A DNA stretch of 39,727 bases, taken from IMG/VR virus record IMGVR_UViG_2778261268_000004. The stretch is one strand, 5' to 3'. The position numbers and the translations under genes were made by a program. The stretch is from a virus. Its lineage: Duplodnaviria; Heunggongvirae; Uroviricota; Caudoviricetes. Below are positions 4,148 through 33,253 of this stretch, in pieces; the first letter of the stretch is position 1; every line of letters begins with the position of its first letter. The notes beneath the pieces were generated by a model, which worked only from the letters and a program-made list of their open reading frames with translations, was not told the origin of the DNA and did not search any database.

Positions 4148-4965
4148 ACGTACATATCCTGTTTACGTGCCCAGTCAGGGCGTTTAATAATTTCCACTCC
4201 GCCCCACTCATCGTTGATGCGGCATTCGTGATAGGTATTCAGATCCCGGTGGAACAGAGCGTGCCCGGCATCGACATCCGGCGCATCCAGCTCGAACACG
4301 CGTACCGGATACCGACCACAATCAATGCTTTCGCTCACGGCAAGAAAGAAAAAACCATGCGGCTGACCAGTAACCCTCATTGCGCCTTCGCGGTACATTG
4401 CGTCCTGCACGTGGTAGCGGAATTCCTCGATGTGGCGTGCAAAACGGTCCATATCTGCAACCTTTTTCACGTCGACGATCACGTTGTGCTCGTTCAGCCA
4501 TTTGTCTGGACGAATTCGGCACAACTCACCCGTATCTTCATCGTTCCAGTACATTGATGCTTCGCAGTAACCAGGTGCTTCCAACATCCAGCGTGCCGCC
4601 GGGTGAGCCATTGCGCTAGCACGCATCAGCTCCAGTTTTCGCCACTGCTCTGCATCAAGTACCGAAATCCCCATATCCGCTACATCACGAATAAATGCCT
4701 CTTCGTCAGCTTTACCTTGTTTTGTCCGACGATCGAATTTCGGTGAAACGATGAAGCGTTTGTCAAACTCTCCAGGTTCCAGAAGCAGACAGTGCAGAGC
4801 AGTACCCATGTCCAGTGCAGACTTCTTCTCTTCGTCTTCCGGAGCAGCCTTCACCCATTTCAGAAGGGCAGGGTTCTTAGCCACCATATCTAGCTGCGAC
4901 TTACTCACGCCGTCACCGGCGTGGTAGTCCTCGTTGCTGATATCGAAATAAATTCCCGGATTCAT
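4144..4965 (-). CDS. PD-(D/E)XK 5'-3' exonuclease (RecE/exonuclease VIII-like)
   Basis: N-terminal GIYFDISNEDYH and D...E.K (DVKKV) nuclease signature; translationally coupled to the Bet-like gene. Confidence 0.75.
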   Translation of the reverse strand: MNPGIYFDISNEDYHAGDGVSKSQLDMVAKNPALLKWVKAAPEDEEKKSALDMGTALHCLLLEPGEFDKRFIVSPKFDRRTKQGKADEEAFIRDVADMGISVLDAEQWRKLELMRASAMAHPAARWMLEAPGYCEASMYWNDEDTGELCRIRPDKWLNEHNVIVDVKKVADMDRFARHIEEFRYHVQDAMYREGAMRVTGQPHGFFFLAVSESIDCGRYPVRVFELDAPDVDAGHALFHRDLNTYHECRINDEWGGVEIIKRPDWARKQDMYV

Positions 4966-11651: not shown

Positions 11652-11982
11652 ATCAGCAGCAGAGCGCAAAGCCGCTCAGAGAGCCAGACAAGCTGCATCT
11701 GGTGTGCGTAAGCTGGAAATTGTGCTTGATGCTCAGGAAATTGAAATGCTGGAGCGTAACTGTGCCGCGCGTCGCCCAGGGCGTGCGCCTTACGAATTTG
11801 GTGAGTATATAGCGTTACTGATCCGCCAGGATGATGCACGCGTGCGCGGGCGTATAAAATCGATCAGTAGAAAACGTTGCGGTAAGTGCGGCGAGAGAGT
11901 TCCAGTTAATTCATGTCCGTGTAATGGTGACTCACAATGCTGGGTGACTAAAGGCTGGCATGAAACGAAATTAATAGTGTGA
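11644..11982 (+). CDS. Hypothetical protein with C-terminal zinc ribbon (possible regulator)
   Basis: CGKCG...CPC cysteine cluster; last gene before the terminase; stop lies inside a GTGACATGTCAC palindrome. Confidence 0.5.
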   Translation: MAKSAAERKAAQRARQAASGVRKLEIVLDAQEIEMLERNCAARRPGRAPYEFGEYIALLIRQDDARVRGRIKSISRKRCGKCGERVPVNSCPCNGDSQCWVTKGWHETKLIV

Positions 11983-11990
11983 CATGTCAC
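11979..11990. repeat. Perfect 12-bp palindrome GTGACATGTCAC (copy 1)
   Basis: Exact string; overlaps stop codon of the 11644-11982 gene; terminator 40 bp downstream. Confidence 0.9.
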
Positions 11991-12031
11991 GAGTAGATTA
12001 TGCATGATGAATTTGACGGGTTTTGAATACT

Positions 12032-12058
12032 GCCGCCAACTATGGCGGCTTTATTTTG
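12032..12058 (+). terminator. Rho-independent terminator before the terminase genes
   Basis: GCCGCC-aacta-tGGCGGC followed by TTTATTTT. Confidence 0.65.
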
Positions 12059-14243: not shown

Positions 14244-14255
14244 GTGACATGTCAC
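14244..14255. repeat. Perfect 12-bp palindrome GTGACATGTCAC (copy 2)
   Basis: Exact string; adjacent to hairpin 14221-14238. Confidence 0.9.
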
Positions 14256-28820: not shown

Positions 28821-31295
28821 ATGAGACAGGAATGTATACAAGCGGTCCAGCAGGTGGCGCAGCGCGCGTTAACGGCGCGAGAAATACAGAACATTGAAGA
28901 CCGCATTTATCGAAATATGCGCTCCATTGCTCGTGATGACCCGATGTCGTGGCGACAACTTTCCGAATCAGAACGGTTGTATCGTGCAGCACAATTGGCA
29001 TCTGAAGAATTACAGCGAGAAGCGGCATTAAAGAAACGTCGTGTGGCCCTCGCTATAGCCGCACGTCAGAGATTGGATAAATTTATCAATAGCTATCAAG
29101 GGGCTGATGGGAAACTTGGCGCTCTTAACCGTACTATTGCTTTTAATGCAGACGGTAAATCGAATTTCCTCTCTGTTGAATCCAGAACAAAAGCCACTCG
29201 TGATTATGCATTGAGTCAATTGCAGGAGGCATTTGAAGCAGTTGATCCTCGCTTTTTTGGCCTGTTTGAAGATGAAGCGGGCGTGCGTGACCTGGTATAT
29301 GAAATGCGAGGGCAAAATACTGGCAATGCTAAAGCAAGAAAAGGTGCTAAGGCGTGGAGAGAAGTGACAGATCTACTTCGCCGCCGGTTTAATGATGCTG
29401 GTGGGGACATTGGCTATCTCGAAAACTGGGGGATCCCTCAACATCATTCTATGGAAAAGGTTGGGGCGGTATCAAAGGATAAGTGGGTTAGCGATGTTAT
29501 AGGTAAGCTGGATCGCAAATATTATACCCGAGCCGATGGACAACTGATGAACGATGCCGAGTTGTCTGCATTTCTTGGAGAGGCTTATAACACGATCGCT
29601 ACTGGTGGGCTGAATAAGCTTACTGATACCGGAATGCGAATTTCCGGCGCACGTGCTAACCGTGGTAATGCATCACGACAGATACATTTCAAAGATGCAG
29701 ATTCCTATCTCCAATATCAACAACTTTATGGCGATCGCTCTCTATGGGAAATCATGGTCGGTCACCTGGAAGGTATCAGTAAAGATATTGCTCTGGTGGA
29801 AACATATGGTCCAAACCCCGATCATGTTTTCCGCTCTCTTCTTGATCAGGTGAAGGCAGAAACGGCAACAGCTAACCCGAGTAAAACCGGTAAAGTCGAG
29901 CGGCTGGCGAACAACACAGAGAATCTGTACAACTTTATTTCCGGAAAGACACAGCCTGTAGCGAATCCGCACATCGCGCGATGGTCTGACAATATCCGCA
30001 ACTGGCTGGTTGCCAGCAGACTCGGTTCCGCGTTGCTGTCATCGTTCTCTGATCTTGGGACCATGTATCTGTCTGCGAAGGTGACCAACCTTCCAATGAA
30101 CCAGTTATTCCGCAACCAGCTTGAAGCTATGGACCCAACGAACCGTACAGAACTTGCGCGGGCGCGCCGCGCTGGTCTGGCGATGGAATCTCTACTTGGC
30201 AGCGTTAACCGCTGGGCGATGGATAATATGGGGCCGTCAGTGTCTCGTTGGGCGGCAACGGCGGTAATGCGTGCCAGTGGGCTTACAGCATGGTCAGATG
30301 CGCACAAGCGCGCCTATGGCGTAACCATGATGGGAAGCCTGGGAGAAGTAGTGTCACGGACACCAGACCTTCGTAGCCTCGATGATTCTGATTTTCGCAT
30401 CCTGAAAAGCAAAGGGATTACTGACACAGACTGGAGCGTATGGAAGCTGGCGCAACAGGAGGACTGGGGGAACGGCAATAATACGATGCTGACACCGGAA
30501 AGCATTATGCGTATCCCTGATTCAGCAGTTAAACATCTTGGTGAGCCTGAACGCGTGAAATTTGAGGCAATGCGTAAACTGCTCGGTGCCGTAACTGAAG
30601 AAGTTGATATGGCTGTTATTACACCTGGAGCACGTGAGCAGCTGATAACCGGTTCTGGTATTCAGCGTGGAACATGGAAAGGTGAATTAACGAGAAGTGT
30701 TTTCCTGTTTAAATCGTTCCCTATCTCGGTTGTTATGCGTCACTGGTCACGCGCTATGGGTATGCCGTCTGCTGGTGGTCGTGCGGCATATATTGCGACG
30801 TTTATTGTCAGTACGACCATTCTTGGCGCTTTGTCGCAGCAACTTAACGACCTTGCGTCTGGTCGTAATCCTCGAGAGATGACAGGAGAAGATGCCGCAA
30901 AATTCTGGCTTGGTGCTCTACTGAAAGGTGGTGGTCTTGGCCTTTACGGTGACTTTTTATTGTCAGATCACACTAGGTACGGAAGCGGCGCGCTGGCGTC
31001 GATGCTTGGCCCGGTAGCTGGTCTGGTTGATGACGTAGTGAAGATTGCTCAGGGCATACCGTTAAATGCTGTGGAAGGGAAGAGTGAGCAGACTGGTGGT
31101 GATCTGGTGAAGCTGGGGAAAGGTTTGATGCCAGGTGCGAATCTCTGGTACTTAAAGGCGGCTCTCGATCATATGATCTTTAACCAGATGCAGGAGTATT
31201 TTTCACCAGGCTATTTGCGTAAAATGGAGCAACGTTCGAAGAAAGAGTTTAATCAGACATACTGGTGGCGACCTCAGGATGTCACTCCGCAATAA
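28821..31295 (+). CDS. Internal virion / ejection protein, gp16-like
   Basis: 824 aa, last large gene of the core block. Confidence 0.6.
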   Translation: MRQECIQAVQQVAQRALTAREIQNIEDRIYRNMRSIARDDPMSWRQLSESERLYRAAQLASEELQREAALKKRRVALAIAARQRLDKFINSYQGADGKLGALNRTIAFNADGKSNFLSVESRTKATRDYALSQLQEAFEAVDPRFFGLFEDEAGVRDLVYEMRGQNTGNAKARKGAKAWREVTDLLRRRFNDAGGDIGYLENWGIPQHHSMEKVGAVSKDKWVSDVIGKLDRKYYTRADGQLMNDAELSAFLGEAYNTIATGGLNKLTDTGMRISGARANRGNASRQIHFKDADSYLQYQQLYGDRSLWEIMVGHLEGISKDIALVETYGPNPDHVFRSLLDQVKAETATANPSKTGKVERLANNTENLYNFISGKTQPVANPHIARWSDNIRNWLVASRLGSALLSSFSDLGTMYLSAKVTNLPMNQLFRNQLEAMDPTNRTELARARRAGLAMESLLGSVNRWAMDNMGPSVSRWAATAVMRASGLTAWSDAHKRAYGVTMMGSLGEVVSRTPDLRSLDDSDFRILKSKGITDTDWSVWKLAQQEDWGNGNNTMLTPESIMRIPDSAVKHLGEPERVKFEAMRKLLGAVTEEVDMAVITPGAREQLITGSGIQRGTWKGELTRSVFLFKSFPISVVMRHWSRAMGMPSAGGRAAYIATFIVSTTILGALSQQLNDLASGRNPREMTGEDAAKFWLGALLKGGGLGLYGDFLLSDHTRYGSGALASMLGPVAGLVDDVVKIAQGIPLNAVEGKSEQTGGDLVKLGKGLMPGANLWYLKAALDHMIFNQMQEYFSPGYLRKMEQRSKKEFNQTYWWRPQDVTPQ

Positions 31296-31304
31296 GGATG
31301 AGAA

Positions 31305-31406
31305 ATGATTGCTTTTATTCTTGTTGTGTTTGCGCTTGTTGCACTTGGCGTTATGAACCGTAATGTATCATTGACGATGGCGAATTTGCTGTTGCAGTTA
31401 TTTTGA
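31305..31406 (+). CDS. Small hydrophobic peptide (33 aa)
   Basis: AAGGATGAG RBS; MIAFILVVFALVALGV hydrophobic N-terminus; not in ORF track (<60 aa). Confidence 0.3.
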   Translation: MIAFILVVFALVALGVMNRNVSLTMANLLLQLF

Positions 31407-31451
31407 TATTATCTGGTGTAGCAGGGTACATAGGCTTGTCATAACGTGAGC

Positions 31452-31463
31452 GTGACATGTCAC
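31452..31463. repeat. Perfect 12-bp palindrome GTGACATGTCAC (copy 3)
   Basis: Exact string; immediately upstream of terminator hairpin 31464-31482. Confidence 0.9.
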
Positions 31464-31488
31464 AGGCCGCTTTCGCGGCCTTGTTTTT
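31464..31488 (+). terminator. Rho-independent terminator ending the internal-virion-protein operon
   Basis: AGGCCGC-tttc-GCGGCCT followed by TGTTTTT. Confidence 0.75.
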
Positions 31489-31648
31489 AACGAATACCAC
31501 CGCCGCCAGGGCGGGAATCCGCAGAACGCCCACCGCAGCGGGAGCCGTCAGCGGCAGTATCGCTGTCGTGCTGACAACGACCGGCAAAGGCCTGAGTTGA
31601 AGCTACCAGAGACAACAAAACGAACAGTGCAGCAAATGCTTTTTTCAT
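31487..31648 (-). CDS. Small secreted peptide (signal peptide plus about 31-aa Gly/Arg-rich mature part with 2 Cys)
   Basis: MKKAFAALFVLLSLVASTQAFA signal-like N-terminus; weak RBS. Confidence 0.35.
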   Translation of the reverse strand: MKKAFAALFVLLSLVASTQAFAGRCQHDSDTAADGSRCGGRSADSRPGGGGIR

Positions 31649-31720
31649 TGTGAAATTTCCATCTATAAGCCACCTCAATGTGGCGTCAATGAGTGTAGCA
31701 CTGACTTTTGTTTCGTCCAC

Positions 31721-31746
31721 AAAAAAGCCCGCGCTGCGGGCTTCTA
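31721..31746 (-). terminator. Rho-independent terminator after the unknown 210-aa gene
   Basis: GAAGCCCGC-agc-GCGGGCTTC followed by TTTTTT on the minus strand. Confidence 0.75.
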
Positions 31747-32379
31747 TTAATGCAGTTTATCTTTGCTTATAACCAGTAGTCTGTGGGTATGCACATCTTT
31801 ATCACTGCCCCAACAGAAATCAGCCCACTGGCTATAGAAATCATCCCATGATGTCATGAAGCTAAGAGGTCTATCTTCTTCAGAGCCATCTGAAACGTAT
31901 ACATTATATCCCGGGGTGTTTATAGCCCAAGAAATCATTCTTTCCCAGAATCTTCTCCCATCGATTGTTTGTTGCTCATCAGATACAACAATCGCATATT
32001 GCTCTAGGAAGAACTGAAAAAAAATCTGAGGCAAACCATGAACAGCACGGTCATGAATAACATTAGGCGTACGCCATACCATGATCTGCGTACATGTTCT
32101 TTTGGCTTCGACGATATCTTCCCGAAAGATTAACTTAACCGCATACACCGTTTCTGGAGTATCGCTGGTAGTAATCATTCTGTAATGATCGCCATTACAA
32201 GATTTTACAAGGCGATAACCATAAGGTGTTGTGAATCCCGGAAGAACGAAATCAACCACACCTTTCGCTAAGTAGCTTTCGGTGTGACTAGTGTTCTTCT
32301 CAGACATGTTCAGTTTTCTATCGAAATCTGCTTCTGGGATAATGTATGGCATCGCTTTTCTTGTTGTATTTGTTCTCAT
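31747..32379 (-). CDS. Unknown 210-aa accessory protein (moron)
   Basis: Strong GGGAGGA RBS 5 nt from ATG; own terminator (31721-31746); TTACC-N5-GGTAA operator upstream; no recognisable motif. Confidence 0.6.
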   Translation of the reverse strand: MRTNTTRKAMPYIIPEADFDRKLNMSEKNTSHTESYLAKGVVDFVLPGFTTPYGYRLVKSCNGDHYRMITTSDTPETVYAVKLIFREDIVEAKRTCTQIMVWRTPNVIHDRAVHGLPQIFFQFFLEQYAIVVSDEQQTIDGRRFWERMISWAINTPGYNVYVSDGSEEDRPLSFMTSWDDFYSQWADFCWGSDKDVHTHRLLVISKDKLH

Positions 32380-32438
32380 TTCGTCCTCCCATGTTTGGCT
32401 ACAGGACGCGTTTTGAAGGGAAGATTAAAAATGCTTTC

Positions 32439-32525: not shown

Positions 32526-33236
32526 TCAGAAGAACCCTGCCTTGTCGTTGATGTACTCCGCGTGCGTCTGGATATCACGCAGGCATTTGCTCACACCGAC
32601 GATGTAGCAGAACATGGTGGTCAGTTCCGCCGCCGCGCCCGATACGTCGTGCCCGTCTTCCTGTAACTGGTTTAGCAGATTCATCAGCAGTGAGCTCTCC
32701 GTCAGGCCGAGAACACCAGACGGCGAATGAATCAGGCTACGGTAGCCTGGCTTCAGTGGGGCACTGTAGGTTTTGTTCTCTATCTTCATTGCCTGCATCA
32801 CTGCTGATGCTGTGGCGTTGGCTACCTGGTCGGCAACCATCTTTATGCGTTCTTCCTGCGGGAGCGAGTTTTTAATGTAACTTCCGGTGCGGCGGATCTG
32901 AGGAAGAACCTCACCTGTAACCCATTTACGAAAGCGGTAGGGGATAGTGCCTGGTGTCACCGCATCGCGGCAGCGGAGGATCAGTGTGTAGAGGCCTGAC
33001 TCGGAGATGATGTTGATCTCTTTTACTCGGCTATCAAAAATTGCACGATGTTCATGCCCTATGTTGAACATAGACCTTTCATCATCATCCAGTTTTTCAA
33101 GTGATTGGGTGACGTTTTGGATACGCAGCGCACTACAAACGTCTTGGGCTACAAACCATGGTTGGCCATCGATAATGATGGAACGGATAGGGTTAACAGA
33201 TTCAAATTTGAAGATGGCAGTTTGAGCATTAGCCAT
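32526..33236 (-). CDS. Bro-N domain antirepressor-like protein
   Basis: N-terminal FKFESVNPIRSIIIDGQPWFVAQDVCSAL...ESGLYTLILR Bro-N pattern; GGAGAT RBS. Confidence 0.75.
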   Translation of the reverse strand: MANAQTAIFKFESVNPIRSIIIDGQPWFVAQDVCSALRIQNVTQSLEKLDDDERSMFNIGHEHRAIFDSRVKEINIISESGLYTLILRCRDAVTPGTIPYRFRKWVTGEVLPQIRRTGSYIKNSLPQEERIKMVADQVANATASAVMQAMKIENKTYSAPLKPGYRSLIHSPSGVLGLTESSLLMNLLNQLQEDGHDVSGAAAELTTMFCYIVGVSKCLRDIQTHAEYINDKAGFF

Positions 33237-33253
33237 GGTGGTTATCTCCACTT

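Follow-up and report, generated by a model that had tools for sequence, protein, structure and literature searches.

The locus described here is part of a phiV10/epsilon15-like prophage, and lies where the end of the rightward late operon, encoding virion and ejection proteins, meets the distal end of a leftward block of accessory genes. Two small ORFs converge at this junction, and both belong to genes that are already catalogued: the 33-aa ORF on the plus strand is a broken copy of a known membrane-protein gene, and the 53-aa ORF on the minus strand is, judged by its homologues and codon analysis, a genuine gene. Since both have been catalogued, the locus is an example of ordinary mosaic phage architecture. 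An earlier note on the same stretch of DNA (39,727 nucleotides, hereafter the window) had described two small convergent ORFs, a hairpin and a copy of GTGACATGTCAC, and all four are in place. Taken as a whole, the explanation that we favor, namely a junction of late operon and accessory block with a truncated 46-aa gene on one side and a 53-aa moron encoding an exported envelope peptide on the other, is in our judgment likely to be correct.

The region at 31.2-31.8 kb matches the Uetakevirus (phiV10/epsilon15-like) podophages of E. coli and Salmonella, and the window is identical (100%) to the deposited complete chromosome of E. coli VG48B2. In the virion/ejection-protein operon the final large gene (plus strand, 28821..31295) encodes 824 aa with a full-length match to PHROG 684, 'virion structural protein'. 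It is annotated likewise in phiV10, where its homologue is p20, a protein that the phiV10 record likens to BcepC6B gp17. In the leftward block the 53-aa gene is followed, in the order of the coordinates, by a 210-aa accessory gene (minus strand, 31747..32379; PHROG 1349, full length) and, beyond that, by a Bro-N gene (32526-33251; Pfam Bro-N, E = 4e-19). The corresponding order in phiV10 is p20 (824 aa, virion structural), p21 (46 aa), a terminator, and leftward accessory genes including Bro-N, after which come an epsilon15 gp19-like gene and the tail fiber gene. The holin/endolysin/spanin cassette of phiV10 (p27-p30a) is located beyond the tail fiber gene, about 5 kb from p21, and by homology with phiV10 its counterpart in the window is the group of ORFs at about 36.6-38.4 kb.

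Several observations identify the ATG ORF of 33 aa read at 31305-31406 (plus strand) as a 1-bp-deletion allele of the conserved 46-aa gene PhiV10p21, as far as alignment with its relatives can tell, and not as a conserved frame in its own right. Compared with phiV10 the window lacks one A, so that AAA is reduced to AA at 31362-31363 (CCGTAAATG in the relatives, CCGTAATG here). The frame is broken after codon 19; residues 1-19 are native, the next 14 are out of frame, and a stop after 33 codons replaces the intact two-helix frame of 46 codons, with loss of the second helix, in DNA that is otherwise homologous. When the A is put back, the ORF encodes a 46-aa product, MIAFILVVFALVALGVMNRKCIIDDGEFAVAVILILSGVAGYIGLS, which is identical to WP_000559990.1 (strain 2015C-4944). 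The phiV10 alignment and this one-base repair place the ancestral gene, a member of the PhiV10p21 family with two hydrophobic helices, at 31305..31444. The extra base is present in 57 of the 58 complete E. coli genomes that carry the stretch, and the sole exception is the window's own genome; in this count 202-203 nt were aligned to the 201-nt query, against 201 nt for the window's own genome.

The wider distribution of the two versions agrees with this reading. Among divergent pairs from E. coli and Salmonella phages the 46-codon frame has a dN/dS of 0.1-0.25, indicating purifying selection, and the PHROG 7892 profile (46 positions) matches the window peptide over residues 1-20 only. In a collection of 15 billion proteins the exact 33-aa sequence was not found, whereas the repaired 46-aa sequence occurred on at least 1,000 contigs, and the PGAP annotation of the source genome calls no gene at 31305..31406. 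The 46-aa product has two Kyte-Doolittle hydrophobicity peaks, and both it and the 33-aa version are strongly hydrophobic (GRAVY 1.8-1.9). A hydrophobic, membrane-like ORF thus exists, as had been proposed from the sequence, but conservation does not extend to the 33-aa peptide, which comes from a frameshift allele seen in one of 58 genomes, or from an assembly error.

The small plus-strand gene appears to be translationally coupled to the 824-aa virion gene. It starts 9 nt past the 824-aa stop, and its Shine-Dalgarno sequence, AAGGATGAG, overlaps that stop codon, which together suggest that the late operon ends with this gene as a translationally coupled cistron. The 33-aa frame ends 58 nt before the hairpin, and the intact frame would end at 31444, 20 nt before it.

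According to the mechanism that we propose, a 1-bp deletion in the A-run would shorten this last late gene to 33 aa, and the deletion could represent either a decayed allele or an error of assembly or sequencing. If it were an error, the real prophage would encode the intact 46-aa protein and the cell would contain no 33-aa peptide. We consider this possible but doubtful. It would fit with the base being missing in one genome only of the 58, with the change being a difference in homopolymer length (AAA to AA), and with the remainder of the gene being identical to the intact allele. However, a run of three bases is short for typical homopolymer errors, and the deposited complete genome agrees with the window at 100%. 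Moreover, a second allele, found in WP3-S18-ESBL-09 and two further genomes, bears an indel near the 3' end that alters the C-terminus, from which it follows that real indels do arise in the 46-aa gene. 

Between the two genes lies a unit of about 35 bp that consists of a palindrome and a hairpin. Its left part is the 12-bp perfect palindrome GTGACATGTCAC (31452-31463), of which the window contains three exact copies where chance would give 0.17; none of 100 shuffles reached three. At the junction it is invariant in phages of E. coli, Salmonella and Klebsiella with unrelated flanks. Readings of the palindrome as a CRP, LacI-type or sigma-54 site were considered, and neither spacing nor sequence gave them support. 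A terminator scan, RNA folds and the phiV10 annotation identify the right part, at 31464..31488 (plus strand), as an intrinsic terminator that serves the late virion operon. The hairpin AGGCCGC-TTTC-GCGGCCT (31464-31481) is followed by TGTTTTT; it has seven pairs, six of them GC, a loop of 4 nt and a plus-strand tail, TGTTTTTAAC / UGUUUUUAAC, and so has the canonical form of an intrinsic terminator. Folding of the plus-strand RNA gives a centroid energy of -13.8 kcal/mol, the stem does not vary in any of the aligned contexts (8/8 and 7/7), and the phiV10 record annotates the same hairpin as a terminator. A hairpin at 31464-31488 with its U-run would be expected to end transcription of the late operon.

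The situation on the minus strand is different, and the idea of a shared terminator holds in part. Both genes do converge on one hairpin, which by its sequence is common to the two, but only the transcript of the plus strand has the U-run, and the hairpin is a canonical terminator for that strand alone. In the minus-strand transcript the hairpin begins 5 nt past the 53-aa stop and is followed by UGUGACAUGUCAC / UGUGACAUGUCACG, with no U-run, and the terminator scan reported no minus-strand terminator at the hairpin. On the minus-strand side the tail is richer in T in the Enterobacter and Klebsiella homologues. The hairpin may stabilize the 3' end of the 53-aa transcript, or terminate it weakly. 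An Rfam scan of 30800-32400 gave nothing above noise.

The 53-aa ATG gene (minus strand, ORF 31648-31490, stop 31489-31487) was identified by PHROG 14503, homologues and codon analysis. Its stop codon overlaps the T-run of the plus strand. The match to PHROG 14503 is full-length (residues 1-53 on all 53 profile positions, E = 2.3e-40), and the product is identical to RefSeq WP_000708858.1, which NCBI and UniRef name 'transmembrane anchored protein'; the PHROG label is 'membrane associated protein', in the category 'moron, auxiliary metabolic gene and host takeover'. Of 5,426 complete E. coli genomes, 422 (7.8%) contain the gene together with its 5' region, with no indels in the sampled E. coli matches, and the exact 53-aa sequence occurs on at least 1,000 contigs. 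Two other readings of the same DNA were rejected. A 77-aa version with a GTG start (PHROG 3117) carries an extension that overlaps the upstream terminator and promoter and is not conserved, the MKK start being universal; and in the case of an antisense plus-strand ORF of 47 aa (31457-31600), selection acts on the minus-strand 53-aa frame.

Close homologues form 57 protein clusters in Enterobacterales, and occur in Shigella, Citrobacter, Klebsiella, Cronobacter, Pectobacterium, Dickeya and Salmonella. In a genome scan and two profile searches further members turned up in Rhizobiales, Methylobacterium, Devosia, cyanobacteria, Vibrio and Bacteriovorax, and the family amounts to at least 626 clusters at 90% identity, or 548 at 50% identity. 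In Rhizobium, Methylobacterium and Mesorhizobium the homologues reside in prophage-like regions beside tail-fiber, Ant/pRha and Phage_lysozyme2 genes. Among 126 neighboring ORFs of 44 distant homologues no partner gene recurred, and only scattered integrase/IS and housekeeping genes were seen. Given such heterogeneous neighbors, and no conserved partner outside prophages, a reading as 'phage effector' may fail for the family as a whole.

Conservation of the reading frames in related prophages, to which the earlier note had looked for a decision, is seen for one frame of the two: the 53-aa frame is conserved (homologues, dN/dS, PHROG 14503), and the 33-aa frame is not. As the 53-aa frame lies well beyond chance and is maintained under strong purifying selection, the proposal of a small-peptide gene on the minus strand stands. 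The codon analysis gave the mature part a dN/dS of about 0.07 (pN 0.14) and the signal peptide one of about 0.16 (pN 0.26), values to be read with dS saturated (pS about 0.7).

In its organization the 53-aa gene looks like a self-contained accessory 'moron', although the use of its promoter and its expression in the lysogen are deduced from sequence features. The layout would comprise an upstream terminator, a sigma-70-type promoter of its own, a short structured leader, the ORF and the hairpin. The upstream element is the predicted intrinsic terminator of the 210-aa gene (minus strand, 31719..31745; arms 31725-31732 and 31736-31743, then U6), recognized as an inverted repeat and by RNA folding (centroid -15.3 kcal/mol). 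It is kept in TL-2011b, phiv142-3 and EC.W1-9 despite differing upstream genes, and from its sequence it is a terminator that insulates the 53-aa gene from upstream transcription.

The predicted promoter and 5' UTR (minus strand, 31656..31719) are marked by a conserved -10 and a covarying leader hairpin. The putative elements, all on the minus strand, are a -35-like TGGACG (31719-31714), a 16-nt spacer, an extended -10 TGcTACACT (31700-31692), a 5'-UTR hairpin GCCAC/GTGGC (31684-31669) and a weak Shine-Dalgarno sequence, GGAAA (31660-31656). A TAnnnT is aligned with this -10 in 13 of the 15 homologous upstream regions compared, which come from several genera and diverge in the spacer sequence, and each of four pairs in the leader hairpin shows a compensatory change in at least one sequence. 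The promoter should nevertheless be regarded as a prediction, because a strict promoter scan gave no sigma-70 site for the gene; the proposed -35 and -10 each match the consensus at 4 of 6 positions.

The base composition of the cassette and its distribution in relatives also fit a moron. The GC content is 0.61 over the 53-aa gene and 0.41-0.43 in the flanks. The cassette from 31451 to about 31742 is found at 98-99% identity behind ant in TL-2011b and E. coli 07_3636 and, in E. coli 1446, after SLT-type ejection operons that are unrelated, and its upstream neighbor varies between a YafO-family toxin gene and the 210-aa gene. In Klebsiella Uetakeviruses a homologue occupies the same convergent position after the gp17 homologue. 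The simpler relatives E2348/69, JML285 and SPN1S are without the entire accessory insert, and hence without the 53-aa gene, and phiV10 has lost all of the gene but its last 21 nt (GGGGIR-stop), which are fused to the 3' end of the Bro-N gene. The gene is thus present or absent between otherwise collinear relatives, as is expected of a moron, and its reduction to a 21-nt remnant in phiV10 implies that it is dispensable for the phage.

The description of the minus-strand product as a peptide with a signal sequence and a Gly/Arg/Cys-rich remainder was borne out, both a Sec-type signal peptide and a Gly/Arg/Cys-rich mature part being visible in the sequence and in the alignment of homologues. The predicted signal peptide comprises residues 1-22 (31648-31583, ...AFA|G) and the mature peptide the 31 residues 23-53 (31582-31490), with Cys25 and Cys38. 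Following a variable hydrophobic N-terminal segment there is a nearly invariant core motif, C-x4-D-x-A-x-DGSRCG-x-R...GG, and the window protein has all of the invariant columns (C25, D30, A32, D34, G35, S36, R37, C38, G39, R41, G48 and G49). The hydrophobic core of the signal segment varies freely among 30 aligned homologues, nearly all of which have alanine in position -1 and a small amino acid in position -3, and by the -3/-1 rule signal peptidase I probably cleaves after AFA22, freeing a periplasmic peptide of about 31 aa. Among relatives the DGSRCG core can follow a lipoprotein lipobox, be repeated in tandem, lie C-terminally in a larger secreted protein, or form the N-terminal domain of a protein that continues with RNPDTDW, a transmembrane helix and about 150 aa of cytoplasmic domain. 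All of these arrangements are extracytoplasmic, which together with the AxA motif favors export and cleavage. The mature peptide is hydrophilic (GRAVY -1.2), and from the positions of its cysteines we infer a Cys25-Cys38 disulfide that would close a 12-residue loop, CQHDSDTAADGSRC, ahead of a Gly/Arg-rich tail.

Structure prediction and domain searches gave no informative result for the family. AlphaFold2 gave no confident fold: the precursor had a pLDDT of 71.5 with the signal-peptide helix alone defined, and the mature peptide one of 57. Pfam, NCBIfam and PADLOC gave, for both peptides and for 24 diverse homologues, nothing beyond signal-peptide matches at noise level, a PDB sequence profile search found no match for the 53-aa family at E up to 10, and the longer proteins with the DGSRCG domain had no informative Pfam partner domains. 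One candidate carrier of the domain, an 805-aa protein, was discarded as a false positive with a eukaryote-type chitin-binding repeat. Resemblances to Excalibur/EF-hand-like Ca-binding motifs (DxDxDG...C) and to DUF3761 were considered and set aside, as no profile match supported them. In the literature we found nothing on a phage 'transmembrane anchored protein', on WP_000708858 or on the motif DGSRCG, and the vB_EcoP_ZX5 paper does not mention the 53-aa gene.

We suggest that the 53-aa pre-peptide would be exported by Sec, cleaved after AFA22, and act as a periplasmic cysteine-loop peptide in the lysogen, where the envelope is its most likely place of action and a broadly conserved molecule its most likely target. 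That the core is so extremely conserved from phylum to phylum speaks for a very conserved target, or for a metal- or ligand-binding loop, and against a phage-specific lock-and-key factor. Superinfection exclusion or envelope protection is our leading guess as to its role.

In the specific form of an exclusion factor that would block envelope penetration or DNA delivery from the periplasm, by analogy with T4 Spackle or the HK97 gp15 moron, this guess is nonetheless unlikely to be right. The product is small, predicted to be exported, prophage-borne and autonomously organized; the gene adjoins ejection-protein, lysozyme or tailspike modules in prophages of Enterobacterales and Mesorhizobium; and the PHROG category includes host takeover alongside morons and auxiliary metabolic genes. 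All of this speaks for such a factor, though not in preference to other roles in the envelope. On the other hand, there is no sequence or profile similarity to known exclusion or defense proteins, PADLOC included, and the only Pfam match to T4_Spackle (E = 0.065) belongs to one distant homologue and not to the window peptide, and is noise. Furthermore, a mature core that is near-identical from enterics to cyanobacteria would be unusual for phage-specific exclusion factors, and some of the homologues are found among housekeeping genes.

An alternative view is that the product stays uncleaved as a bitopic membrane protein, whose periplasmic Cys-loop would modulate a membrane sensor or transporter in the manner of MgrB. 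This would be in keeping with the database name 'transmembrane anchored protein' and with a length of about 50 aa that includes two conserved periplasmic cysteines, and in related proteins the same domain is fused to a genuine transmembrane helix that leads into a cytoplasmic domain. We nevertheless hold it to be rather improbable, since AxA is retained at -3/-1 in nearly all of 30 homologues despite a freely varying hydrophobic core, versions with a lipobox or with the domain at the C-terminus show that it works without this anchor, and the protein has no similarity to MgrB.

The roles of toxin and lysis regulator that had been put forward for these peptides found no support, the former for want of any match to toxin-antitoxin or defense models, and the latter by position. 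That one or both are type I toxin-like membrane peptides or lysis regulators would be suggested by their small size and by the hydrophobicity of the 46/33-aa product, but is very improbable given that the hydrophobic gene is the last cistron of a late structural operon and does not form a free-standing toxin locus paired with an antisense RNA, that no Rfam RNA and no toxin, antitoxin or defense model (PADLOC, Pfam, NCBIfam) was matched, that the lysis cassette maps elsewhere, by homology to about 36.6-38.4 kb in the window and about 5 kb from p21 in phiV10, and that the mature peptide of the 53-aa gene is hydrophilic and stably carried by 7.8% of E. coli genomes.

Returning to the favored reading of an exported envelope peptide, both it and the adjoining palindrome-hairpin unit could be placed in a wider frame. 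The DGSRCG peptide might be the enterobacterial form of an uncatalogued extracytoplasmic mini-domain that occurs in several phyla and is spread by phages and mobile elements as a stand-alone periplasmic effector against a universal envelope target, and the 35-bp palindrome-plus-hairpin might be a terminator recognized by a protein, or a recombination linker for cassette exchange. This is speculation to which we give little credence at present.

In an otherwise ordinary locus, what remains of interest is the DGSRCG peptide family, which has no Pfam entry, and the conserved palindrome-hairpin unit beside the 53-aa gene. Small envelope peptides encoded by prophages can alter host physiology or phage susceptibility, and this gene, itself without a Pfam family, is present in about 8% of complete E. 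coli genomes, including STEC and ExPEC strains. If a ligand of the invariant 25-residue core were found, a function could be proposed for several hundred protein clusters in Proteobacteria and cyanobacteria.

 T4 Spackle, which mediates superinfection exclusion from the periplasm, is also small, phage-encoded and furnished with a Sec signal peptide, but the analogy would be functional only: there is no meaningful similarity, one distant homologue reaching E = 0.065 against PF25676, and the 53-aa peptide has about one third of the size of Spackle and is not confined to one phage group. MgrB, an inhibitor of PhoQ, is a membrane peptide of 47 aa and has a pair of periplasmic cysteines. The 53-aa product recalls it in size, in its N-terminal hydrophobic segment and in its two conserved periplasmic cysteines; the family differs from MgrB in having no sequence similarity to it, in its signal-peptidase motif and in its occurrence in phyla without PhoQ.

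Other parallels are found among phage morons, of which lambda bor and lom and HK97 gp15 are known examples. The 53-aa gene bears no sequence relationship to these, but like them it is a single accessory gene bracketed by terminators, with a putative promoter of its own and an atypical GC content. The plus-strand gene corresponds to PhiV10p21, 'putative integral membrane protein' (46 aa, PHROG 7892), at the same locus and with the same start and Shine-Dalgarno sequence, 139 of 140 nt being in common; PhiV10p21 has two predicted transmembrane helices, whereas the window copy is 33 aa long and without the second. The closest counterpart of the minus-strand gene is WP_000708858.1/PHROG 14503 (for example TL-2011b gp43), with all 53 residues identical. 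The name of that family implies an anchor, where the conserved AxA motif suggests cleavage, and genes of the TL-2011b gp43 type likewise close a leftward accessory block, with the same hairpin behind them.

Upstream of the 53-aa gene (minus strand, 31487-31648, encoding a predicted exported Cys-loop peptide), the predicted 5' UTR contains a small hairpin, GCCAC/GTGGC, on the minus strand at 31669-31684. Among homologues from several genera this hairpin is maintained by compensatory changes (CCAC/GTGG, CCGC/GCGG, CCGT/ATGG and CTGC/GCAG); conservation extends to a CTACACAT-like motif immediately 5' of the Shine-Dalgarno sequence. Relatives of the Cys-loop domain include a subfamily (P0158, P0160, P0161, P0175 and P0176) in which the domain leads, through RNPDTDW and a transmembrane helix, into a cytoplasmic domain of ~150 aa; the latter has a conserved N-x-YDAA motif and gave no Pfam match. 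Elsewhere among the relatives the Cys-loop domain is found in lipoproteins or as tandem repeats.

The 53-aa gene is accompanied in many E. coli prophages by the 210-aa gene, which in the window lies on the minus strand at 31747-32379 and has its own terminator. This neighbour belongs to PHROG 1349, a function-unknown family, and had no Pfam match; it carries a frameshift annotation in E. coli 1446, and in TL-2011b its place is taken by a YafO-family toxin gene. In phiV10 a remnant of the 53-aa gene, its final 21 nt (GGGGIR-stop), is kept immediately after the Bro-N stop codon (4284-4311, equivalent to window positions 31487-31510). This remnant is a deletion scar, the 53-aa and 210-aa genes both having been lost. 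The 29-aa product annotated as PhiV10p22 represents the C terminus of the Bro-N frame.

On the plus strand, the 46-aa gene, which encodes a PhiV10p21-family membrane protein, has a second indel allele in E. coli WP3-S18-ESBL-09 (1556-1702). Here GCAGGG is changed to GCCAGGG, by which the last 7 residues are altered and the ORF is lengthened to 48 aa. A length of 203 nt for the aligned stretch that holds the gene (201 nt in the window's own genome) occurs in three genomes.

The palindrome GTGACATGTCAC and the adjoining GGCCGC/GCGGCC hairpin form a unit of ~35 bp (window 31452-31488) that is invariant in seven contexts with unrelated flanks, in phages of E. coli, Salmonella and Klebsiella. Further copies of the palindrome are present at 11979-11990 and 14244-14255, and all three window copies are located at module junctions, each beside a terminator-like hairpin; the one at 14244 adjoins the terminator of a minus-strand PF13876 gene. 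PhiV10 has its copies in the same three places. Possible roles of the unit are protein binding, regulated transcription termination, or a function as a recombination linker.

TGTGACATGTCACG is present on at least 120 IMG/VR contigs, most commonly just upstream of terS. In the window, the palindrome copy at 11979 lies between a p55-like regulator gene and terS, and its half GTGACA forms the -35 element of a promoter-like site upstream of terS (within 11979-12049), followed by an 18-nt spacer and CATGAT. Approximately 24 nt past this site is a strong hairpin with a T-run (12032-12049), positioned right where the terS ORF begins. As a sequence arrangement, the putative promoter and the hairpin are reminiscent of a late promoter followed by an antitermination-dependent terminator.
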